Of a DNA stretch of 64,000 nt, positions 10,777 to 64,000 are shown in pieces (position 1 is the first letter of the stretch; each line of letters opens with the position of its first letter). Under the pieces are notes generated by a model, which was not told the DNA's origin, ran no database searches, and saw only the letters and a program-made list of their open reading frames with translations. This DNA comes from Candidatus Obscuribacteraceae bacterium (GTDB taxonomy: Bacteria; Cyanobacteriota; Vampirovibrionia; Obscuribacterales; Obscuribacteraceae). The stretch lies in assembly GCA_044226015.1 (NCBI GenBank), contig JBGAHS010000001.1, positions 1,184,001-1,248,000 of the forward strand, in the 5' to 3' direction. A program made the translations under genes and the position numbers.

Positions 10777-11463
10777 ATGAAAGCTAAGCATGACAAATTG
10801 ATCGCTTTGACCAGGGCGTCGAGAACGACACAAGCAGAATCACCCGCGACTCAAATCAAAAAGATTGAGGAATTTTGTGAAAAGCAGAATTGCCAGATAG
10901 TTGGCAAGATGAATGCATTCGAATCTCGCAAGAAAGCTAATAGAGATACCGTGAAGGTTGCACTTGAAGAAATAAGAGCCGGCAAGGCTAATGGAATCAT
11001 TTGCACTCGCCTTGACCGCCTTGCAGGTAACCTGCTGGAGCTGCTGAAGATTGGTCAACAACTGGACGAGCACAGAGCAGTTTTTGTATGCACTGACCAA
11101 AACATAGATACTCGCACTCCTGAAGGTAAACTCTTCTTTCACATGCTTGGAGCCATTGCCGAGTTTGAACACGGATTGATTACCGCGCGCATAAAAGACG
11201 GCAAGGCTCATGCAAAGGCTGAGGGTAAATTTGCTGGTGGCTCAGTTCCGTTTGGCTACGATGTTGTGAAGACTGCTCCAAAAGAAGTTGGAAGGCTGGT
11301 TGAAAAGCCTGAAGAGCAAAGGATTATCAGGCAGATAATCAAATGGAGAGATACCGACAATTGCTCTTACCAGGCTATTGCTGATTTCCTGACTGAACAA
11401 ACGGGTAAAACCTGGCATAGGAATCAAGTGGTTAGAATCTATGAACGAGCCTCAGAGAAATAG
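10777..11463 (+). CDS. Serine recombinase (resolvase/invertase family) with a short C-terminal DNA-binding region
   Basis: TRAS (catalytic Ser), RLDRL, IDTRTPEGKLFFHMLGAIAEFE, GGSVPFGY; GAGG RBS. Confidence 0.92.
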   Translation: MKAKHDKLIALTRASRTTQAESPATQIKKIEEFCEKQNCQIVGKMNAFESRKKANRDTVKVALEEIRAGKANGIICTRLDRLAGNLLELLKIGQQLDEHRAVFVCTDQNIDTRTPEGKLFFHMLGAIAEFEHGLITARIKDGKAHAKAEGKFAGGSVPFGYDVVKTAPKEVGRLVEKPEEQRIIRQIIKWRDTDNCSYQAIADFLTEQTGKTWHRNQVVRIYERASEK

Positions 11464-11465
11464 CT

Positions 11466-11807
11466 CTATTCCTGCTTCTTTCTTCGCTTCTTTTTCTCTT
11501 TCTCTTGCGGTTTCTCGATGAAAGGGTCCTGCTTCTCGATATTCAGTCGATCCATGATAGGTCCGAGAAGCCGCCCCCTTAAAATGCATTCGCACCAGGA
11601 GCAGACCCAGTATTTAGTATCCTCTTCGTTTGGTGATGTATATTGTCCGCATGACGAGTTGCCACAGGTCTGCTTTGTGCAATAGATGCAGATTCGAAAG
11701 CGTCCGCTTTTGATCTCGCCAAGGCACCTCTGACAAATTCTGGAATAGTTTCTTCTCTTAGCCATGACGGCGTTATACCCAGAAAGACCAAAAGAGACCG
11801 CACTCAT
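11466..11807 (-). CDS. Hypothetical Cys-rich (zinc-finger-like) protein with a basic tail
   Basis: CQRC, CIYC, CGNSSC, CSWC motifs; likely start at MAKRR. Confidence 0.55.
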   Translation of the reverse strand: MSAVSFGLSGYNAVMAKRRNYSRICQRCLGEIKSGRFRICIYCTKQTCGNSSCGQYTSPNEEDTKYWVCSWCECILRGRLLGPIMDRLNIEKQDPFIEKPQEKEKKKRRKKQE

Positions 11808-11846
11808 TGAAAACGGTCTCTTTATCAGTCGGAATGATGGCTATTT

Positions 11847-12737
11847 CTAAGCGTTTCTACGCTGATGTCGGTACGAGAACAAAGCGTCCATTGCTTTTGT
11901 CATAGCGCTGATAATAGGCTGCCTATCAGCACGAGCATAGATTAGAGTTGAACGCGGGTCTCTGTGATTGAGCGTCTTTTGAATAATTGCTAGAGATGCG
12001 CCCGTTCTAAGCATCCAGCTTCCTAGCGTTCGCCTGAGATCGTGAATGCGCAAATCGTTCAGTCCAGCACGGGCAACAATGTCATACCAAGTTTTTCGAG
12101 GGTTCTGCATGTGACCCTGACCTCGAGCCCCAGGAAAAACGTACACCGCTGTATCTTTGAACGCAGAACGATTTCTCAGCAGGGTTATAGCTTCCGGAAG
12201 CAATGGCACAATGTACGGATCTCCATTTTTCGAATCCTGGGTTATCCAGATGCCTTGCTCAAGGTCAATCTCGCTCCACTTCATAGCTTTGACCGTGCCA
12301 GACCTGGCTGCTGTGTAGACGCAGATATAGAGAAAGTCTCTAACGGTTCTACTCTCGCACGAATCAATTGCAGCGAACAGCGGCTCAACTTCATCTGGAA
12401 GCAGAAAGCGATCTCTGCTCCGCAGGCGAAACTTTTTTATTCTCTGAGCCGGATTACTACCGGCATACAAATCCCAGTCCAACATGCGGTTGTAGACGCT
12501 ACTAATAACTTCGATTGCTCTATTTGCTGCTGTCCTTCCAGCGGAGTTTCCGATCTCAGTGTGAAGAACTTGCAATTCGTAACGACTGATTGTGTGTAAT
12601 TTGCGTTTTTCGAGATTCTTCAAGTAGCGATTTCTCAGTCCGATTACTTCGTGAAAACTCTTCAAATGCTCTTTCGCATATTTTGCATAAAGGTCGAAGG
12701 CTTCACCGAATGTTGTTAGTTTGGTTACTTTTTGCAT
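11847..12737 (-). CDS. int: Tyrosine recombinase / phage integrase
   Basis: Catalytic R (TAARSG), K (SKNG), HDLRR, LNH, IYAR; GGGAG RBS; adjacent to the tRNA fragment. Confidence 0.93.
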   Translation of the reverse strand: MQKVTKLTTFGEAFDLYAKYAKEHLKSFHEVIGLRNRYLKNLEKRKLHTISRYELQVLHTEIGNSAGRTAANRAIEVISSVYNRMLDWDLYAGSNPAQRIKKFRLRSRDRFLLPDEVEPLFAAIDSCESRTVRDFLYICVYTAARSGTVKAMKWSEIDLEQGIWITQDSKNGDPYIVPLLPEAITLLRNRSAFKDTAVYVFPGARGQGHMQNPRKTWYDIVARAGLNDLRIHDLRRTLGSWMLRTGASLAIIQKTLNHRDPRSTLIYARADRQPIISAMTKAMDALFSYRHQRRNA

Positions 12738-53695: not shown

Positions 53696-54442
53696 TTAAG
53701 GGTGCCGCTTTGATGGAAAAGTGAAGATGCTTCCATTTTCGTTGACTCCATAAAAGATTGCCAAAACATCATCAAGATTGCACGGGTGTTTTTCTCCATC
53801 CTCTAAGTATTCAAAGTTCCAGCTGGAATCAAGAAACTGCCTACGCAAATACGACTTCATCAAGGAGAAAGCACCTGTCAATGCTCTAAATGAATCTATG
53901 GAATCCCAAACGAGAAGCTTGCCATTTTCTAATTGCGCTGCGCAAGTCCAACGATTTCTAACTTTCCTGGGTTTATGAACAGTCATTGCCAATTCAATTT
54001 TTGACTCATTTCCGACGGCAGTGATGATCACGCTGTCAGTGATCCGCTTTCCAAGCTTGGTGGAATCTCGCGCTATTCCTGTAAAGTCGTGCTCAAACAA
54101 TGCTTCGAGCGCAGTTTCTAGATTGACTTGTTGCCTTTTTCCTGAAAGTCGAAATCGATCGCCCGGTGCAAAATTCTCAAGCATCTTTTTACGGATTGCT
54201 CCAAACGAGTAGGCTATAGATTGAAACTCCGAAGTGCCAATTCCATGAGCTCTCAGTACTGTTTGATTATTCGAATCTTTCAATACCACGAAAGTCCAGC
54301 AAGCTTCTGGTCTGAATTTGTCCAGTCCCCATGTAGGTGCATGCACAATCAAATAATAGAAGCCCGAGCGAAAACACTGGGATTTTAGAATCTCCAGTTC
54401 GCTAAATCCAATCAGTTCCAAATTGTCAGATCGTTTTTTCAT
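53696..54442 (-). CDS. Putative immunity protein of RHS cassette 1 (two similar P..W.C/DS..AL domains, DUF6968-like)
   Basis: TAATG overlap with the toxin stop; HKP...WTC...DSFRALTGAF. Confidence 0.65.
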   Translation of the reverse strand: MKKRSDNLELIGFSELEILKSQCFRSGFYYLIVHAPTWGLDKFRPEACWTFVVLKDSNNQTVLRAHGIGTSEFQSIAYSFGAIRKKMLENFAPGDRFRLSGKRQQVNLETALEALFEHDFTGIARDSTKLGKRITDSVIITAVGNESKIELAMTVHKPRKVRNRWTCAAQLENGKLLVWDSIDSFRALTGAFSLMKSYLRRQFLDSSWNFEYLEDGEKHPCNLDDVLAIFYGVNENGSIFTFPSKRHP

Positions 54443-55491
54443 TAGTCATCATCAAGTCCTTGATTCTGTCGGCTAATTGCATCGGCTTCGTCCTGTATAG
54501 CCTTTTCGAAATCTGAAGCCTTCCATCTGGCGCGTCCTCGACTTCGAATGATTCGCTTGTAGACGTTTCTATTATCCTTGTCTAACATTCCTTCTGCTGA
54601 CTCACCAAGCGTGCTTGGTTTCACCCTGCCTTTTCTTTTTTTGGCCGCCGAAAAAGGATCCTCTGGCTTTTTTAATCTTGGACGCGGATCTCGTCGAAAG
54701 TCTTCGAAGATCTTTTCCCACCATGGTGTACCTGGCTCTCCACCTTCGTCATCGGGGGCACCACCACCACCACCACCGGGGTCATCACCATCACCACCGT
54801 CCCCATTATCATTGCTGCCACCGGGATTACTTTGATAGCACCTACCAGGAATTAAAGGTTTCGAATTGCCAGCCCCTTGTCCAAATGGTACTAGGTTTCT
54901 TCCAAGAAATGAACCACGGTGTCCTCCGGGTACCGGAACTGCCGTAATAGCTAGGGTTCCATCAGGATCTACCGCCAGAATCGGATTGTTTTCAACATAG
55001 TCGAAAAGATTGATTCCGCCGATTTCACCGAGTGGATCTCGGTTGATGAATCTGCCTTGGTTGGCCGAATATGCTCGTGAGGTAGTTAAGCTGAGTTGAC
55101 TTCTTTCGTGCAGGTAATAGCTTCCGTATCGAAACGTCGCTTCCTGTGCACCAGCCAGTTTAGTCACTAGCCCGTACGGATCATATCGGTACTGGGCCTC
55201 GATGGTCGTTGTACCACCGTTAGTCTTGGTCATCTCTGTCACAGAGCCTTCGTGATTCTGCGTATAAAAATAGCTGGCACTTGGAGATGAAAGTAAAATT
55301 TGGCCCAACCAGAAGTATTGTTGGGATGAATTACTTGAAAGATCTCTTTCCTCACATCTAGCCGTTCCACACCACAAATGTTGCTTCGTCGAAGTGACAC
55401 TGCCAGCAGTGCGCTCCTCGATTTTAGTTGCGCGCGAAAGTGCATCATACGAAAATTGGGTGATGTTTCCGGTGGGATAAGTCTTGATTTC
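54442..55491 (-). CDS. Start-less RHS core/C-terminal toxin cassette 1
   Basis: EIKTYPTGNITQFSYD..., YDPYG, GRFINRDP, NPILAVDPDG, then a variable tip; in-frame stop just upstream of the repeat. Confidence 0.85.
   Translation of the reverse strand, partial: EIKTYPTGNITQFSYDALSRATKIEERTAGSVTSTKQHLWCGTARCEERDLSSNSSQQYFWLGQILLSSPSASYFYTQNHEGSVTEMTKTNGGTTTIEAQYRYDPYGLVTKLAGAQEATFRYGSYYLHERSQLSLTTSRAYSANQGRFINRDPLGEIGGINLFDYVENNPILAVDPDGTLAITAVPVPGGHRGSFLGRNLVPFGQGAGNSKPLIPGRCYQSNPGGSNDNGDGGDGDDPGGGGGGAPDDEGGEPGTPWWEKIFEDFRRDPRPRLKKPEDPFSAAKKRKGRVKPSTLGESAEGMLDKDNRNVYKRIIRSRGRARWKASDFEKAIQDEADAISRQNQGLDDD
55372..55473. repeat. 102-bp RHS cassette repeat, copy 1
   Basis: 3 mismatches to copy 4 (manual count). 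Confidence 0.95.
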
Positions 55492-55714
55492 GGTGAAGTC
55501 GAATGATTAAGCCAAAGTCTCTGGGTGAGAAGTCCGTCGTGCTTTTAATTCTCCCAGTGGAAGAGGTTCGAGGTTTCCGCATCCTCACGGTATTAAAAGT
55601 CAGCTGAAATCAAGGCAAAGCATTGCTCAAATTTTTGAAATGCATAACAGCGTCCGCATCAACTATAATTTAAGTCACAGTTAGTTATGACTTACAAAAG
55701 GCCATTTTTTAGCC

Positions 55715-56317
55715 GTGGATCGATTTAAGGATTATTCGCAATTGAAAACATACTCGGACAAAGGGATCACCGAGTACGTTTCGGGGAATGGAGAGTTATT
55801 GCTTCTGGCAAGCTTTTCGACAACTTTTGAACGTGGCAAGTTGATTATCTTTGATTACAAAACCGAAACCAGAACGCCGACAGTAGGACGCGACGGAAAA
55901 TTACTTTTTAAGGGATTTAGCCCCTTCTTTCAATGCCGAATGGAATTCGATTTCAAGAATTGCCATCTGACCTACACTCCTTCGAGTCCTTCATTGAAGG
56001 AGCTAAGAAAAGGCGGTCAGCTCGTAGATTTGATTAGTGAAATAAGAATTGTCTCGATAATTCCTTCTATGTTATTTGGACTCTATTCTCTGCCATTTGC
56101 AAACTCAGAATCGATCATTGTTCCATCAGAAGTTGAACTCGCAACAGGAACATCAACTAGAAAAATCCGCTACAACAACAGTGGCTACATTGAGGAAATC
56201 ATCAGAGACTCCGTACAGGAAGACCGCTCTGTTTTCCTTTCTGGATTGCAGCTAACTAAATCTACTTCCTCTTACCGCACTAAAATTCTGGTGGCAGAAC
56301 ATCGCCGGGAGGAGTAA
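55715..56317 (+). CDS. Hypothetical protein convergent on cassette 2, putative immunity; paralog of 61952-62632
   Basis: YSDKG...FSTTFE...IIPSMLF. Confidence 0.6.
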   Translation: MDRFKDYSQLKTYSDKGITEYVSGNGELLLLASFSTTFERGKLIIFDYKTETRTPTVGRDGKLLFKGFSPFFQCRMEFDFKNCHLTYTPSSPSLKELRKGGQLVDLISEIRIVSIIPSMLFGLYSLPFANSESIIVPSEVELATGTSTRKIRYNNSGYIEEIIRDSVQEDRSVFLSGLQLTKSTSSYRTKILVAEHRREE

Positions 56318-57257
56318 CTCCCAGAATGCATAGCAGAATGTCCAATGAAAGTCTTGCTTCGTTCAATTGCAATCGATACTTTAAGGTGAAGTCGTCATTA
56401 CGGGCAGCTCGCAGGATCTCCCTCATATGTCTCCTTTGATATCTGTCCATGGCTCTTTGAATGCATTTATAAGCATCATCATAATCATCTCCACCTTCGG
56501 GTGGTGGAGTTATTTTGTCTCCGTCGTCATTACCGCCTCCGCCAGGTCCGCCACCACCACCGCAGCCACCTTTTTTGCTACCATTGTCAGGCTCATCGTT
56601 TTTTCCAGGTTTTGGCTCAGGACTATCGAGCATATCCGCTTCACCAAACCTAGTTTTGTTTCGCCCTCTGTATGCGCCGTCTGTAGCTAGTCTTCCGACG
56701 TTCATTCCTATCCCACCGCGCAATATCTGACCTGTAGGATCCGTCGCTAAAATTGGTGAGCAACCAACATAAGCATATAGATTCAAACCGCCATTTTCTT
56801 GGATCGGATCTCTGTTGATAAATCGTGCAGAATCGGCGCTGTAAGCCCGATAGACAGGCAGATTTAGACCACTGCTGGGATGGAAATAATAGCCCGCATA
56901 TTGGAAATCAGAATTTTGGGTACCCAGCAGTTTTGTGGAGCGACCAAACGGACTGTAGATATACTGGGCTTCTATAGTCGTAACCGGGCCCGCGACAGTC
57001 TTGGTAATTTCCCTTACAGAGTTCAAATGGTCCTTAGTGTAAAACAAGTCAGTAGCCATGCCGGTCGAAAAATTTCTTTGAGCGAGCGACAGAAATTGCT
57101 TGCCATTACTCAAACTACCAATGCCATCTCTCTCCTCACACCTGGACAAGCCACACCATACATGTTGCTTCGTCGAAGTGACACTGCCAGCAGTGCGCTC
57201 CTCGATTTTCGTGGCGCGCGAAAGTGCATCATACGAAAATTGGGTGATGTTCCAGGT
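56280..57257 (-). CDS. Start-less RHS core/C-terminal toxin cassette 2
   Basis: DHLNSVRE, YSPFG, RFINRDP, PILATDPTG; TAA immediately upstream of the repeat. Confidence 0.85.
   Translation of the reverse strand, partial: TWNITQFSYDALSRATKIEERTAGSVTSTKQHVWCGLSRCEERDGIGSLSNGKQFLSLAQRNFSTGMATDLFYTKDHLNSVREITKTVAGPVTTIEAQYIYSPFGRSTKLLGTQNSDFQYAGYYFHPSSGLNLPVYRAYSADSARFINRDPIQENGGLNLYAYVGCSPILATDPTGQILRGGIGMNVGRLATDGAYRGRNKTRFGEADMLDSPEPKPGKNDEPDNGSKKGGCGGGGGPGGGGNDDGDKITPPPEGGDDYDDAYKCIQRAMDRYQRRHMREILRAARNDDFTLKYRLQLNEARLSLDILLCILGVTPPGDVLPPEF
57156..57257. repeat. 102-bp RHS cassette repeat, copy 2
   Basis: 5 mismatches to copy 4. Confidence 0.95.
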
Positions 57258-57415
57258 TTAATCTGATTGGATTTCAGAAGCTTGGAAACATAGCCGCTCT
57301 GTGTCAGAAGTTCCTTAAGATGACTACTCCGGTGAGAAAAGTAGGTAGCCAGCAAAGACAGAAAAATATAAGAGCATGATTGTTGCCGCGTAAGTTCGGA
57401 GGGCGTGTTTTAATC

Positions 57416-57826
57416 CTAAAAATAGACGTCAAAATACAACAGCCCAATTTCAAAGGAAGCAAGCTTCTTCATGGCTTGTGGTGCAAGATTGATAACACCA
57501 TGGTAGGATTCTGCTGACAAAAAAATAGAGATGTCAACTCTGTATCCATTTGACCTGAGCATTCGAATGAGGCTTCTCTTACCTTCAATCTTTTCCAGCA
57601 ACCACAGCAGGTGGAAATTTATATCTTTAGAAATTAAATGCGATGTTCCGAAATACCAGGCACCGAATTCATGACATACAGCAAGCTTAGTGAAGGATGA
57701 ATTCAGATCGCCTTTTCTGAAAGACCTTTGTGGAACCAATTCCAGAAGCTGTGAAATATAGCTAGGGTCGAGATCTGGATGAGCGATCCTCAAATCTAAA
57801 TACAACTCAGATGCTTCGCCAGTCAT
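57416..57826 (-). CDS. DUF4279-like putative immunity protein (second of a tandem pair)
   Basis: LRI.HPDLDP..IS.LL.L.P...G.W...HL.WLL pattern; ATGA overlap with the upstream paralog. Confidence 0.75.
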   Translation of the reverse strand: MTGEASELYLDLRIAHPDLDPSYISQLLELVPQRSFRKGDLNSSFTKLAVCHEFGAWYFGTSHLISKDINFHLLWLLEKIEGKRSLIRMLRSNGYRVDISIFLSAESYHGVINLAPQAMKKLASFEIGLLYFDVYF

Positions 57827-58299
57827 AGTGGAGCCACCCCAGAGCTCGCCCACATATCAAAGATAATGGATGAGTCATACCTCGCTAAATCTTTTAGGCT
57901 ACGATCACTAATAGTCCAGCTCATGTTCGTAGATGCGGACACAGAGTAAACGATAAACTCAGTCCTGACGCCGAGTGCAATAATTTCTTTCCACCTTCCT
58001 TGGCATGGAGCTAACTTATCCAAGAGCCATTGTAAGTGGGCTTCAAGCCTTGTAGACTGCACAAATTCATGACTGGATAAAATCCAGCCGTTCTCTAAAA
58101 CTGGAGATTCTTCTTTCTCCAAAGTAATTCTCAAATCGTTTGATAACCATGACCGACTCGGAGTAATCCCCAAAATTTCGGTTATCTGCGCAGGGTCAAA
58201 ATCTTCTCCTACAATTCTAAGACAAACGTGGATACAGGATGGTTTTTCTGAATTTGTATTTTTTGAACTAATTGGTTTGGCTCCTGTCTTCCGAGTTAT
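57823..58299 (-). CDS. DUF4279-like putative immunity protein of cassette 3 (start probably non-canonical ATA/ATT)
   Basis: In-frame extension upstream of 58173 gives CLRIVGEDFDPAQITEILGITPS; HLQWLLDKL. Confidence 0.7.
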   Translation of the reverse strand: MTRKTGAKPISSKNTNSEKPSCIHVCLRIVGEDFDPAQITEILGITPSRSWLSNDLRITLEKEESPVLENGWILSSHEFVQSTRLEAHLQWLLDKLAPCQGRWKEIIALGVRTEFIVYSVSASTNMSWTISDRSLKDLARYDSSIIFDMWASSGVAPL

Positions 58300-59243
58300 T
58301 CTATCGGTTTTCCGTTAATGCTTGTGATATTACCTTCGCTATCATATTCAATATTATCAGCTCCGCCAAGGTCTAATCCTGCATCATCTTTTACAGTATG
58401 CGTGCGTCCTCGATCTCCCTTCTTCTCCGTTTTCTCACCTTTCGTTTTTCCTTGCTCTTGCCTCGATTTCCATCGTTCCCTTTCTCGTTCCCTGTCCCTT
58501 TTTGATTTACCTCGACTAGGGCACTCGTTGTCTTTCCCTTTTGGCCCCATTGCATTCGATAGATTCTGGAGCGCGTTCTGTATACCTGGTGCTGCGATTC
58601 TACCGACCTGCTCACCGATCGCCGCGGCTGCCACTGCTGCCCCTGCGTAAGCAATTCCTGCTAAATACGGAACCGCTGGGGCTAAGGCTACAAGAAATGT
58701 TCCATTCGGGTCTTTATAGTTTATTGGATTATCTGCAACATATGAGTAAAGATTCGCGCCCCCGTTTTCCTCAAGCATGTCTCTAGTGATGAACCGTCCT
58801 AGGCTTGAATAATAAGCCCGCGTAACAGTTAGGTTTAGTCCACTTCTACTATGTATGTAGTAACTAGCATACTGAAACTCTGATTCCAAGGAGCCGGCGA
58901 GTTTTGTTGGACGTCCATACGGATCAAAATCATATTGCGCTTCAATTGTGGTGGTGCCAGAAACTGTTTTTGTCATTTCTCGCGTTGAACCAATGTGATC
59001 TTGAGTGTAGAAATAGTTAGTAGGTGTGCTGCTGGTGAAATTGCTCTGACCAAATTCGAAAAATTGCTTGCCATTACTCAAGCTGCCCGACGCATTTCTT
59101 TCCTCGCACCTTTGCGTCCCGCACCAAATATGTTGCTTCGTCGAAGTGACACTGCCAGCAGTGCGCTCTTCGATTTTTGTGGCGCGCGAAAGTGCATCAT
59201 ACGAAAATTGGGTGATGTTCCCGGTGTCGGTAGCTATGATTTC
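58296..59243 (-). CDS. RHS core/C-terminal toxin cassette 3
   Basis: DHIGSTRE, FDPYG, GRFITRD, NPINYKDPNG, hydrophobic linker and a basic tip. Confidence 0.85.
   Translation of the reverse strand, partial: EIIATDTGNITQFSYDALSRATKIEERTAGSVTSTKQHIWCGTQRCEERNASGSLSNGKQFFEFGQSNFTSSTPTNYFYTQDHIGSTREMTKTVSGTTTIEAQYDFDPYGRPTKLAGSLESEFQYASYYIHSRSGLNLTVTRAYYSSLGRFITRDMLEENGGANLYSYVADNPINYKDPNGTFLVALAPAVPYLAGIAYAGAAVAAAAIGEQVGRIAAPGIQNALQNLSNAMGPKGKDNECPSRGKSKRDRERERERWKSRQEQGKTKGEKTEKKGDRGRTHTVKDDAGLDLGGADNIEYDSEGNITSINGKPIE
59124..59225. repeat. 102-bp RHS cassette repeat, copy 3
   Basis: 6 mismatches to copy 4. Confidence 0.95.
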
Positions 59244-59337
59244 GATGAATCTGCCTTGGTTTGCTGAATATGCGATGAGTCGTCCCGATACTTCACCCGA
59301 GCACGCTTTGGCGTTAACAATCTTCTGAAGCATGCAT

Positions 59338-59589
59338 TCACATTTTGAACCAATCTCCCGATTGTCCGAATTTTCGCTTGTGCATTTCTGGTAAATCTGG
59401 AGTGATGAGAGGCATTCCATCTGTTAGATCAATTCGTAGAATCAATATTTTGTCGCCAGCAACCAAACTGCCTACAGAATGAGACCATATCAACTTACCC
59501 TTCACGCCGCTGCTTTCAATGACTGCAATGTAGCATTCATCGTCCGTAGACTCTCCTACGATACAGAGTTGACAATCGGAGTATTCCAA
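59338..59589 (-). CDS. Small hypothetical protein, possible orphan immunity
   Basis: 83 aa; GAGG upstream; starts 3 nt after the 59593 ORF. Confidence 0.4.
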   Translation of the reverse strand: MEYSDCQLCIVGESTDDECYIAVIESSGVKGKLIWSHSVGSLVAGDKILILRIDLTDGMPLITPDLPEMHKRKFGQSGDWFKM

Positions 59590-59592
59590 AGT

Positions 59593-59850
59593 TTATTCCT
59601 CAGGCAATGGCAATCGAGTACAACTGTCGGGGCAGCCAGCTAGACATCTATTTAAAGCTTGAATTGCCGCTTTAGTAAGTCTAATTTTTTCTTCTTCAGA
59701 AGCATTTGGCGGGATCTGCGCGATACGCCAATAATACCAAGCATGGCTACTCTGGCCAAAAAGATCAGCGCATAACCCTTCCACAGATCCATGTGGCAGT
59801 GCTTTGAAGTCTCTAGAAGCTGTTTGATAAGAGACTCTGCCGTTATCAAA
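59593..59850 (-). pseudogene. Possible toxin-tip remnant lacking the RHS core
   Basis: Cys-containing tip ...ALNRCLAGCPDSC... in the cassette orientation, with no core or repeat. Confidence 0.3.
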
Positions 59851-60165
59851 TCATCGTTTTGTATGCAAATAGGTATTGCTTGTTTTAGCAGTCCAAATTT
59901 TCACCGCAAGCAGGAAGTTTGGAACTCAAGACAGATTGTCCGACAAGCAAAGCTGCTTCTTCGCTCTAACCTTGCTTGTTTCGTAGTAGTCAATGAGAGA
60001 TTTCGACAACTCGAAAGAAAAGTCATTAGTGCACCTTTTTTGCTCTTTCTCACTTCCCGTAACAAGAAAGTATGAACTCGATGTTGCTACTCGGCTTACC
60101 GATTTGTTCTCAAGTTTCGCTACTGGTATGATGGACACACCGATTGCCAACAATACGGAGCCGCC

Positions 60166-60837
60166 GTGCAGCAGTTGCCACCTGAAGATTTTTTGTATAT
60201 TGAGAAATCCTGTTACGAACACAAGTTCGATTCAGGAACCAAAAATGGCATTTTTTGGATGACTTCAAATAGATTGCGCATTGATACACTGCTTGAGATT
60301 GTCCTTCCACCGAAGCAATTTTGGTTTGTAAGCATCGGAACACGGACTGGTGAATACACAATCTCGAAGGACTTATCTAGTTGGCCGAAAGATTTGATGT
60401 GTGGCAAATTCTTCGTTGTAGAGAGTGAAAACGTTCAACCAGGCGGGAGCTTTGAGTTCCCTCCTTTAGTTAAAATGAATTGCATTGCTGGCCATCCTTG
60501 CCTGGAAGATAGTGATTCATGGACATTGTTTGCAGAACTTAAAGCAACATTTTACATATGCGCTTCTTTTGTAGGAGTCGCCACGATATCTCACGCTCGT
60601 GCACATATTGATCAGGTGCTTCAAAGCGAGCAGTTTTGCTCCTTAGAATTTGAAGAACAGTCGAGACTTAGACAGGTCAAGAAAAAATTTTGGTTAGCAA
60701 CCGGACCTGAAACTGGACCAGAAACATGCATAGAGCCAGGCTGCAAGAGGCTCAGGTCTCGAATCGCCGTTCGATGCATCAGGCACCAATGGCAGTGGGG
60801 AGAGCAATTTTCATCGACCGGATTCAAGCATCTTTGA
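60166..60837 (+). CDS. Hypothetical protein convergent on cassette 4 (C-terminal C..C...C..H)
   Basis: 223 aa; stop lies 8 nt from the cassette 4 stop. Confidence 0.55.
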   Translation: MQQLPPEDFLYIEKSCYEHKFDSGTKNGIFWMTSNRLRIDTLLEIVLPPKQFWFVSIGTRTGEYTISKDLSSWPKDLMCGKFFVVESENVQPGGSFEFPPLVKMNCIAGHPCLEDSDSWTLFAELKATFYICASFVGVATISHARAHIDQVLQSEQFCSLEFEEQSRLRQVKKKFWLATGPETGPETCIEPGCKRLRSRIAVRCIRHQWQWGEQFSSTGFKHL

Positions 60838-60845
60838 ATAGTCGC

Positions 60846-61844
60846 CTACATTGCCTGTTTGAGTGGAGGAGTAGCTGGACAACCACCATCGTCGCCGTTG
60901 CCAGGACCTGGACAGCGTCGGGCGCATTCCTGCCCAGCTTGCGAAGCAAAGTTATAGGGTACACCATAATTCAACAACAGTTGAGCAGCAGCAGCACAGG
61001 CTGCCTTACAACGCTGTCCTCCATTAGGTCCGCGGAAATGAGACCAAGGCTGGCCGGGCCAGATTACGAATGGGTCTCTGTACTGGTCTGGGTGTTCCCA
61101 TTCTCTCCATTCTGGAAGTGGTGCAAGGTTTGGATCAAACAGTTCCTTAATGTTTTTGTTTAACTCCGGTCCATGATCTTGCAACCATTTCATAGCCGCG
61201 GCGGCTGAAGCAGCAGCACCAGCTGCAGCGGCCGCACCACCTACAGTAAGTGAACCTGCTTCTGTAGCAATGATCGGAATCGCCAGTACAGCAAGGATTT
61301 CGCCACTAGGGTCTGTAAATTTTGTGGGCATGTTGTTTACATAGGCATAAACATTGAGTCCTCCGTTTTCAGCAAGTGGATCTCTGTTCAAAAATCTCCC
61401 AAAGCTTGAAGAGTACTCTCTGTATACTGGCGCACTCAATCCAGCACGTGTTTGGAAAAAATATCCAGCATAAAGAAAGTCCGAGTCAGTGCCACCTGCA
61501 AGCTTGCTTCGACCTCCAAATGGATCGTAGCCATACTGAGACTCAATTGTCGTTGTTCCTGCAACATATTTTGACATTTCTCTCACTGAGCCTAAGTGGT
61601 CCGCAGAGTAGACGTAACTTGTGGCTGCACCTCCAGAGTAATTTACTTGACCGAGTCCTAAAAACACCTTGCCGTCATTCAAGCTACCCGAGGCGTTGCG
61701 CTCCTCGCATCTACTTAAGTGTGACCACAAATGTTGCTTCGTCGAAGTGACACTGCCAGCAGTGCGCTCCTCAATTTTCGTGGCGCGCGAAAGTGCATCA
61801 TACGAAAATTGGGTGATGTTTCCGGTGGGATTTGATTGGATTTC
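60846..61844 (-). CDS. RHS core/C-terminal toxin cassette 4
   Basis: DHLGSVRE, YDPFG, GRFLNRDP, PTKFTDPSG, Ala-rich linker and a Cys-rich tip. Confidence 0.85.
   Translation of the reverse strand, partial: EIQSNPTGNITQFSYDALSRATKIEERTAGSVTSTKQHLWSHLSRCEERNASGSLNDGKVFLGLGQVNYSGGAATSYVYSADHLGSVREMSKYVAGTTTIESQYGYDPFGGRSKLAGGTDSDFLYAGYFFQTRAGLSAPVYREYSSSFGRFLNRDPLAENGGLNVYAYVNNMPTKFTDPSGEILAVLAIPIIATEAGSLTVGGAAAAAGAAASAAAAMKWLQDHGPELNKNIKELFDPNLAPLPEWREWEHPDQYRDPFVIWPGQPWSHFRGPNGGQRCKAACAAAAQLLLNYGVPYNFASQAGQECARRCPGPGNGDDGGCPATPPLKQAM
61725..61826. repeat. 102-bp RHS cassette repeat, copy 4
   Basis: Reference copy CCACAAATGTTGCTTCGTCGAAG...GATGTTTCCGGT. Confidence 0.95.
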
Positions 61845-61951
61845 AGCGGGTTTGGGAAGATTCTGTTGGCGGAAGTCGTTGCAACAGTCACTTCAAGTGC
61901 TAACACGCTGATTCCGGTCAAATGGCATTGTGATAAACTGGTGTTATTATC

Positions 61952-62632
61952 TTGGTGTATCCAATGACCCCAGCCAGATTGATAGAGGCTTATAGAAATT
62001 GCTCCATCTACTCTGATAGAGGAATCTCTTTTGGTTGGGTTGGTCATAGCTTGCTCAAGACTGAATTCTCGACGCACTATGAATCACCATCTCAGTTTAC
62101 TCTAGATTGTCGACAAACCATCGATCAAACATCAACTATCCTGGGCGAATGTCACATGGAGCTTACGCCGGGTGGATTTGCTCTTCACGAATCAGAAGGT
62201 GGAAATTCCTTACCAGTGATGAGTTTAATGTCTATTGATTTAGCGATTCACCACACTTTAGTGATATCGAATGGGGTGTCTCTCTTGGTGCCTGGCTTGC
62301 TGTTTAACAGAGTGAGTGGTGACTCTCTCAACATGAGATTCTTTGAAGACTGGGCTGAGAACGATGATGGATCAATTGAGGTCCATGGAAGAAAAGGTTA
62401 TATGAGAATTTGGCTTAACGGATCGCTAATTGAAAGAGCTATTATTTTGTTAAAAAGTCGGGATAAGAAACATTCAATCGAAATCGCGAGGAACGCAGGA
62501 TTTGATGGCGATTTTACTCTACCCGCGCAAACTTTTAGCATCATCAAAGAGTTGGGAGGCCGATTAGTTGGCGATCTTAGCCAGCTGACAGCTTGTTATT
62601 TGTTAGATTACAAAGAACATAGATTTATTTAG
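61952..62632 (+). CDS. Hypothetical protein convergent on cassette 5, putative immunity; paralog of 55715-56317
   Basis: YSDRG...FSTHYE...LVPGLLF. Confidence 0.6.
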   Translation: MVYPMTPARLIEAYRNCSIYSDRGISFGWVGHSLLKTEFSTHYESPSQFTLDCRQTIDQTSTILGECHMELTPGGFALHESEGGNSLPVMSLMSIDLAIHHTLVISNGVSLLVPGLLFNRVSGDSLNMRFFEDWAENDDGSIEVHGRKGYMRIWLNGSLIERAIILLKSRDKKHSIEIARNAGFDGDFTLPAQTFSIIKELGGRLVGDLSQLTACYLLDYKEHRFI

Positions 62633-62637
62633 TCACC

Positions 62638-63648
62638 TTATTCACCAAATATGTCTTTGATATTTGGATATGGATCTTTGCCTTCTTTGCACAGTTCAAT
62701 ATCCTCAATTAGGCGTGCAAAGTTTCTGGCTCTTCTTGCAGCATCATCGAGGTAATTCATAAAGTCTTGCCCTTCTATATCGCTTTCTTCCAAATGAGTT
62801 CGCAACCTTGAATTTCTGATTACCGCAGCTGTGATAGCTTTTAAGATGCAGTTATCAACCGGATCGGCGTCTGGTGAATTTTTGCCACCACCGCCGCCAC
62901 CATCACCGCCGCCACCATCACCGCCGCCACCACCGCCGTCATCGCAATCACCTTTGTCGTCGTCCTTGTCTTTGTCCTCGTCGTCCCCACTGTTATTATG
63001 CCTGCCTGGATGAGGATTTGTTGGTGCGGGAGGTTCTTGTGGTTTGGGCCTAGGAACTGGCATGGGACGAGGAATCATTAGCGGTGGTACCCGCATGGCT
63101 ATTGTGCCCATCCCGCTGGAGTCTTTAGATGAAACTGGGTTATTGTCTACGTATCCATAAAGGTTTACCCCGCCGTTTTCGCCAATCGAATCTCGATTGA
63201 TGAACTTAGCTCCGTTCGCATTGTAAAATCGTGTGACCGTTGCGTACAAAGACGATCTTGAATTCAGGTAATATCCGGCGTATTGAAAATCCGAGTCTCC
63301 GGAGCCTTGGATTTTTGTTTTGACTCCGTACGGATCATAGCTATACTGCGCAATCACGCCACCGGTGGCGTCAATCATTTCTCTGATACTTCCGGGTGAA
63401 GCATCCAAAGTGTAGAAGTAATTACTTCCAACTCCGCTCACGAAGTTCCTTTGTCCCAGAGCCAAGAATAGCTTTCCGGTGCTTAAGGACCCTGTTGCGT
63501 CTCTCTCCTCTACTCTTTCAGACCGACACCACAAATGTTGCTTCGCAGACGTGACACTGCCAGCGGTGCGCTCCTCGATTTTCGTGGCGCGCGAAAGTGC
63601 ATCATACGAAAATTGGGTGATGTTTCCGGATTTTTGAACGGTAGCTTC
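62638..63648 (-). CDS. RHS core/C-terminal toxin cassette 5
   Basis: GSIRE, YDPYG, KFINRDS, NPVSSKDSSG, Pro/Gly linker and a helical tip. Confidence 0.85.
   Translation of the reverse strand, partial: EATVQKSGNITQFSYDALSRATKIEERTAGSVTSAKQHLWCRSERVEERDATGSLSTGKLFLALGQRNFVSGVGSNYFYTLDASPGSIREMIDATGGVIAQYSYDPYGVKTKIQGSGDSDFQYAGYYLNSRSSLYATVTRFYNANGAKFINRDSIGENGGVNLYGYVDNNPVSSKDSSGMGTIAMRVPPLMIPRPMPVPRPKPQEPPAPTNPHPGRHNNSGDDEDKDKDDDKGDCDDGGGGGGDGGGGDGGGGGGKNSPDADPVDNCILKAITAAVIRNSRLRTHLEESDIEGQDFMNYLDDAARRARNFARLIEDIELCKEGKDPYPNIKDIFGE
63529..63630. repeat. 102-bp RHS cassette repeat, copy 5
   Basis: 6 mismatches to copy 4. Confidence 0.95.
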
Positions 63649-64000
63649 GTCTTTGGAAAATATGAGTCGTGCGCCTTGAAAATTTGGATTGCCACCATTT
63701 AAGGTGCCCATGGTCAAGACAGAATCTATTCACCACACTCAGCGTTTTTGCCTGTCCAGAGAGTACAGCCCCACTCTCACTGCGGCAGTTGCTATTCTTT
63801 TGGTTATCTTTTTTTTTTTGACGAACAAAACCGGTTCAAAATTTATTCTTTTGTTTTCGCTCCCTAGCAATCGCGGTCTGCTTAGCGACCTGAGATGGGA
63901 CTCTGTATTTTTTTACCTGAATCGATTTCGAATATCATCCCAATCGCAATCTGACTTCCATCCACCTAAAGCTAGTTCCGGATGAGCTATAAATAAGTCG

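Follow-up and report, generated by a model that had tools for sequence, protein, structure and literature searches.

Here we describe a candidate recombination site inside the rhs toxin genes of Candidatus Obscuribacteraceae bacterium. In a 64,000-nucleotide stretch of its genome (the window, C11:1184001-1248000 of an 8.2-Mb assembly), five cassettes that each encode an Rhs core and a C-terminal tip begin at near-identical copies of a 102-bp repeat, which also occurs within two long rhs genes elsewhere on the same contig. Based on sequence evidence, we propose that a dedicated tyrosine integrase probably joins such silent core-plus-tip cassettes to a long rhs gene by crossover in an 18-bp core at the 5′ edge of the repeat. 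The geometry of the loci, the cassette boundaries, the linkage of the integrases to rhs genes and the mosaic flanks of the sites are direct observations.

Relative to copy 4, the five window copies (Table 1) are 97.1, 95.1, 94.1, 100 and 94.1% identical over 102 bp, and the longest run invariant in all of them is 38 bp. A preliminary description of the window had reported the five cassettes with these starts, 94-97% identity, 38 invariant bp and the encoded peptide, all of which were reproduced on re-measurement. Its view that the cores are homologous as protein and that the tips differ also held, since TIGR03696 was detected in all five cassettes and the tips are mostly unrelated. The stops that it had placed just upstream of cassettes 1 and 2 are in frame, 12 and 1 codons before the repeat, and cassettes 3-5 have an upstream in-frame stop within 67, 23 and 34 codons, so that no Rhs body is joined in frame to any of the five. 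Identity at four-fold synonymous sites among the five copies is 133/156 (85%) inside the block versus 76/257 (30%) past codon 40, which neither protein constraint nor chance explains and which indicates that homogenisation at the DNA level is real.

An exact 13-mer marks 24 intact sites, all of them in two rhs loci on C11; an extra match on contig C12 lies inside an rhs-like open reading frame (ORF) and has no further flank in common. A 15-base site pattern occurs 29 times in this genome, every time at an rhs core, and no more than three times in any of 103 family genomes. Over the 24 copies, invariance is 96-100% at positions +1 to +18, and synonymous identity per ten codons past the 5′ edge declines from 0.90 through 0.72 and 0.54 to 0.31 (21 cores, three having been omitted as frameshifted or duplicate). 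The sharply bounded block of the preliminary description is therefore borne out at its 5′ edge, which is sharp to the base, and in its synonymous excess, but its 3′ edge is a gradient. This combination suggests that the crossover site is the 18-bp core and not the full 102 bp. Cassettes start at a single position in 21 cases, one further remnant retains 173 bp of body, and 3 of the 24 sites retain just ~18-20 bp of the block. Left arms have one form at all three body-type junctions despite different tips, another in 19 cassettes and a third in two. The constant left arms, which put the exchange at or after -1, together with the three divergent cassettes, which put it before about +20, would place the exchange point between -1 and about +18, and the functional site is probably this 5′ core. 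The flanks are mosaic, since stretches of left flank that are common up to the site (433 bp at 100%, 926 bp at 97% and 178 bp at 82% identity) enter different cores. Exact runs of up to 94 bp occur between cassettes. There are also two frameshifted cassettes and one degenerate site.

In both loci, cassettes face outward on either side of a long rhs gene carrying the repeat. The sister locus (locus A, C11 80-102 kb) consists of five minus-strand cassettes, a tyrosine integrase, two accessory genes, a plus-strand rhs frame of 2322 codons and one further cassette, with five minus-strand and two plus-strand sites and the integrase in between. Locus B, of which the window is the left end, comprises 13 intact minus-strand sites, one of them heading a body remnant, and one degenerate cassette, then a plus-strand rhs frame of 2069 codons and three plus-strand cassettes. 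A long rhs gene, for which the preliminary description had suggested looking to the right of the window, is thus present ~24 kb away, but on the opposite strand and without the first 336 residues of the locus A paralogue, to which it is 79% identical. Both long genes carry PF05593, TIGR01643 and TIGR03696 and match copy 4 at 92/102 and 93/102 bases, versus 61/102 in an unlinked rhs gene on contig C2, so that the equal conservation in unlinked Rhs genes that would have spoken against a dedicated site was not found. At its start, the intact long gene of locus A encodes a stretch that by eye resembles a signal peptide (L002:1102-1500). It has a peptidase C39 domain and a LamG gene upstream, whereas a PAAR domain was not detected. 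Locus B has been invaded by IS66, by a RIT-like element with three recombinases and by a fragment of a reverse transcriptase (L003:3556-10985, L004:15888-17477).

The integrase of locus A (C11:89525-90643) ends ~50 bp before the nearest site. It matches PF00589 at 3e-21 and retains R, K, H-x-x-R, H and Y at the invariant positions, which we take to have their customary roles. The preliminary description had suggested looking for a recombinase nearby; one does abut a repeat site, but at the sister locus 1.15 Mb away. The arm-binding domain PF13356 was detected in three of four relatives tested and is absent from the enzyme of this genome and its sister. The enzyme of one relative, when modelled, is structurally most similar to Tn1549 Int, followed by Xer-type and lambda Int. 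A promoter scan around the integrase gave chance-level results, and a metagenome scan with the integrase returned one relevant match, on a 2.5-kb contig. Two other candidates for the acting enzyme seem somewhat less likely from 80 loci of relatives, which had themselves been chosen by clade integrase or rhs: the RIT proteins of locus B had no match at 1e-30 and a nearby Xer-like gene had one. Convergent resolvase and tyrosine integrase genes also lie within the window 41 kb left of the array (10777-12737), with 26% identity to the clade enzyme.

Of 104 family genomes, 65 have a homologue of the integrase, a count that includes the present genome. The comparison covered 80 stretches, of which 20 were picked partly for nearby rhs and 60 by integrase score (top and lower ranks). 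A tree of 89 integrases contains a 58-row clade, delimited after the first tree was inspected, with a Shimodaira-Hasegawa-like approximate likelihood ratio test (SH-aLRT) support of 99, and 100/100 on a 41-row subset. With ten contig-edge rows left out, rhs lies within 3.5 kb in 48 of 52 scorable clade rows (24 genomes) versus 1 of 25 outside the clade; for the rows chosen by score rank alone, the counts are 33/36 and 1/20. In other phyla, 30 homologues were considered after six duplicates of family loci had been set aside, and none of them lay near an rhs core. The dedicated recombination site that the preliminary description proposed is accordingly supported by the repeat in two long rhs genes, the integrase abutting one site and the linkage of this clade to rhs across the family.

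Loci of relatives usually have the order body, tip, neighbour gene, integrase, site and older tip. Among their truncated cassettes, 27 of 31 switch to rhs sequence at -20/-21 (13 genomes, 8 genera), a common boundary that lies 28 bp upstream of the core of this genome; two of the four exceptions, both from this genus, start near the shifted position. Across the eight genera with the fixed boundary, the integrase lies 130-490 bp upstream. Of 46 rhs-linked integrases, 15 have the site motif in the 600 bp behind them, versus none of 38 others. Several units are bounded by direct site repeats with the integrase beside one of them (L031/L032, L051, L052, L057, L061): contig L061 is exactly one unit with a site at each end, and the L057 unit is bounded by a 20-bp repeat, the right copy of which runs into non-rhs DNA. 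Genomes of the same genus have a few truncated cassettes only, at contig ends. In many relatives (L051, L052, L055, L065 and others), the site behind the integrase is preceded at ~30 bp by a short palindrome, a possible accessory binding site. Tail-to-tail tip pairs between opposed cores in L047, L048 and L056 have the layout of shufflon segments. One integrase subclade lies head-to-head with longer rhs fragments (G000:C4:24001-28094, L037, L089, L094, L098), which suggests another target position in the gene.

These observations can be accommodated by the following model. The unit of most relatives would be a small integrative element made up of site, core, tip, neighbour gene and integrase. 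A circle of this composition that integrates into the site inside an rhs gene would yield exactly the relatives' layout, with a new tip installed and the old one now farther downstream, behind the integrase. The system of this genome appears to be reduced to one integrase without the arm-binding domain, a site shifted by 28 bp and many enzyme-less cassettes flanking the long gene. Where sites are opposed, crossover would turn the gene body round to join another tip, with nothing lost, and direct sites would permit excision between them. Homologous exchange beside the crossover could produce the identity gradient, the rest of the 102-bp block probably being homogenised sequence that was dragged along. 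We infer that the locus A enzyme may catalyse these crossovers, act in trans on the window locus, mediate inversion and be active at present. A broader scenario, which we offer tentatively, is that Obscuribacteraceae harbour minimal integrative elements with a replacement Rhs tip and immunity gene as sole cargo, and that here one integrase lost its arm-binding domain, became resident and runs an active toxin shufflon over two dozen tips.

Several findings weigh against a dedicated integrase system. The long rhs gene of locus B is 5′-truncated and the locus lacks a clade integrase, so that it may be a reservoir or a fossil. The enzyme of this genome sits on a long branch, an approximately unbiased (AU) test does not reject its placement outside the clade (p 0.345), and its site and the family site lie 28 bp apart. 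Four members of the clade are not close to rhs, the family site is missing from the 600 bp downstream of 31 of the 46 rhs-linked integrases, and the orphan cores of many relatives retain longer, variable homology, as homologous recombination predicts. The genomes are related and the counts are therefore not independent. None of 18 short contigs checked has an exact terminal overlap indicating a circle, and just one tip across both loci has a named toxin family. Finally, no rearranged junction or circle was seen in four contig-level read runs, which were compared with the sister locus only and not with the window, and in which all joints were at single-copy depth. Traceable joints and loose ends in these runs matched paralogous cassettes, and the run from a second study contained the repeat and little else of the sister locus. 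Since contigs of this kind end within the repeat and lose rare forms, such data are no test of switching.

Ordinary C-terminal displacement could also generate such loci, with RecA recombination acting in the conserved block, a 5′ edge derived from one founder orphan and the integrases as passengers of rhs islands. This is the published model (PMC2935791, PMC3967940, PMC10539506), and both the identity gradient and the exact runs of up to 94 bp show that homologous exchange occurs here; cassette 1, furthermore, resembles a foreign core grafted behind the block. We nevertheless regard it as unlikely that RecA alone shaped these arrays. The published model predicts variable core lengths, whereas a single boundary recurs in eight genera with the integrase 130-490 bp upstream. 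Joints with just 18-20 common bp and units with the site at both ends exist, and the left-flank motif is conserved though synonymous sites are saturated.

Rather less probable still, in our view, is that the arrays were built by site-specific integration and the window locus is now a fossil or a mere immunity store from which no tip reaches an expressed gene. The truncated long gene and absent clade integrase fit this possibility, as do the inserted IS66, RIT and reverse-transcriptase remnants, the two frameshifted cassettes, the degenerate site and the lack of new junctions in the contig-level runs. Yet the 433-bp flank is duplicated at 100% right up to the site, 926 bp at 97% are common with the intact sister locus, and most cores are still open through the tip. 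Conservation of the block merely by protein constraint or recent tandem duplication is very improbable: the block does lie within coding sequence, but synonymous identity is far higher inside than outside it, the unlinked C2 gene matches at just 61/102 bases, and most tips have no relation to one another. An integron in which the repeat would serve as a single-stranded attC hairpin, which one recombinase with many enzyme-less cassettes might suggest, has a negligible probability. A hairpin role for the repeat was rejected because neither strand of the site folds better than shuffles (z -0.73 to 0.92) and covariation is near zero, and the IntI model TIGR02249 scores 20.5 bits against a cut-off of 265.

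Table 1. Features of the cassette array in window coordinates (+, -, strand; a point marks a feature without strand).
Feature	Position	Strand	Remarks
Likely immunity gene of cassette 1	53696..54442	-	44% identical to gene behind C2 rhs; immunity role suggested by position
Cassette 1, Rhs core and tip	54442..55470	-	TIGR03696; tip family also fused to full-length Rhs of contig C2
Repeat copy 1	55372..55473	-	18-bp invariant core 55445-55462
Left flank of site 1, 926 bp	55463..56388	.	contains ORF 55715-56317 (+); 97% identical to sister-locus site flank leading into a different core
Cassette 2, Rhs core and tip	56280..57254	-	TIGR03696
Repeat copy 2	57156..57257	-	18-bp invariant core 57229-57246
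Two DUF4279 ORFs directly behind cassette 3	57416..58314	-	PF14106; candidate immunity genes
Cassette 3, Rhs core and tip	58296..59222	-	TIGR03696
Repeat copy 3	59124..59225	-	18-bp invariant core 59197-59214
ORF convergent with cassette 4	60166..60837	+	no Pfam family
Cassette 4, Rhs core and tip	60846..61823	-	TIGR03696
Repeat copy 4	61725..61826	-	18-bp invariant core 61798-61815
ORF convergent with cassette 5	61952..62632	+	no Pfam family
Cassette 5, Rhs core and tip	62638..63627	-	TIGR03696
Repeat copy 5	63529..63630	-	18-bp invariant core 63602-63619

The tip and adjoining gene of the solo rhs on C2 are matched by cassette 1 and the gene next to it (52% protein identity over 324 columns for the cassette), which suggests capture of a tip from elsewhere behind the local block. 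Contig C2 itself (70 kb, L010) has a 140-bp terminal overlap and is possibly circular; its rhs gene of 2886 codons has a 17-base run in common with the repeat and a short tyrosine recombinase gene behind it. The core of cassette 5 has two further copies of 93-95% identity in the locus, one of them on the other strand, with different flanks and far ends. Glycine/aspartate-rich (Gly/Asp-rich) linkers are present in several tips (54740-54820, 56521-56568 and 62867-62952), and the three copies of the cassette 5 core part ways after this linker, suggesting a second swap point deeper in the tip. Three of the five window cassettes have a convergent ORF on the opposite strand in place of a co-oriented immunity gene (those of the site 1 flank and of cassettes 4 and 5 in Table 1). 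None of the five window tips matched a toxin family, and an atlas search with the cassette 1 tip gave no usable match; named families in the two rhs loci are one Ntox37 tip and one Imm53 gene. Four contig ends on C5, C3 and C13 (L006-L009) lie inside cores of a second Rhs cassette family, whose arrays face away from the gaps with no body assembled; six cassettes of this family start at the same 10-base core as the window site.

Orphan rhs modules have been described repeatedly (Jackson 2009, PMC2935791; Koskiniemi 2014, PMC3967940; the Serratia Rhs paper, PMC10539506; Poole 2011, PMC3150448), and the first three of these papers invoke homologous recombination. Jackson 2009 proposed circles, asked about their origin and remarked that no integrase had been associated with Rhs; the way in which tips are cut out, transferred and fitted to a gene has been an open question ever since. 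Zhang 2012 reported that XerC/D genes adjoin polyimmunity loci, and Steele 2017 (PMC5727410) described Rhs-associated integrases in the bee-gut bacteria Snodgrassella and Gilliamella, suggesting that they aid capture of Rhs sequences and leaving their role open. Our literature search, which supplements and subscription papers lay outside, returned no paper in which both an Rhs recombination site and the enzyme acting on it are defined. The locus described here supplies a candidate enzyme clade and a site at base level, and thereby makes the question of Rhs tip movement testable. It also suggests how self-mobile elements could give rise to a domesticated shuffler, and it is a source of new pairs of recombinase and site that are compatible with coding sequence.

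The arrays resemble integrons and the rAID of Bacteroidales (PMC12247911) in combining a tyrosine recombinase with a co-oriented array of conflict-gene cassettes. They differ from integrons in having neither an attC hairpin nor IntI, and from rAID, which holds orphan immunity genes and intergenic motifs, in their intragenic site, their presumed toxin tips and the Rhs core that heads every unit. As in the dusA-associated integrase islands (PMC4482086), an integrase clade has a conserved target inside a protein-coding gene; unlike in those islands, the incoming piece brings a different C-terminal domain and not an equivalent gene end, in a unit of ~3.5-4 kb.

The R64 shufflon (Rci, sfx, pilV; 10.1101/2024.10.25.620183) likewise has a tyrosine recombinase beside intragenic sites at which 3′ ends are swapped, with a conserved core and right arm, a variable left arm and opposed sites that permit inversion. 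Locus A shares the opposed sites and adjacent recombinase, and the window locus has the opposed sites without a clade enzyme. Here, by contrast, the integrase is of phage type and is not known to be Rci-like (no Rci annotation occurs among the matches listed, 15 of 72 plasmid matches), spare tips lie on both sides of the gene, and relatives carry direct tandem units that each bear an enzyme. The feature would behave like a shufflon or an integrative element, as an at most putative member of either, and is not an integron.

Integrase genes near rhs loci are shared with Snodgrassella and Gilliamella, for which the available text of Steele 2017 defines no site, boundary or unit, so that this distinction is one of description. 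The closest parallel is Rhs C-terminal displacement, with which the loci have in common a long rhs gene, orphan core-tip modules with neighbouring candidate immunity genes, and old tips moved downstream, and from which they differ in the fixed boundary, the linked integrase clade and the cassettes that also lie inverted upstream of the gene. We read them as a variant of Rhs tip displacement that is most likely driven by a site-specific integrase dedicated to it.

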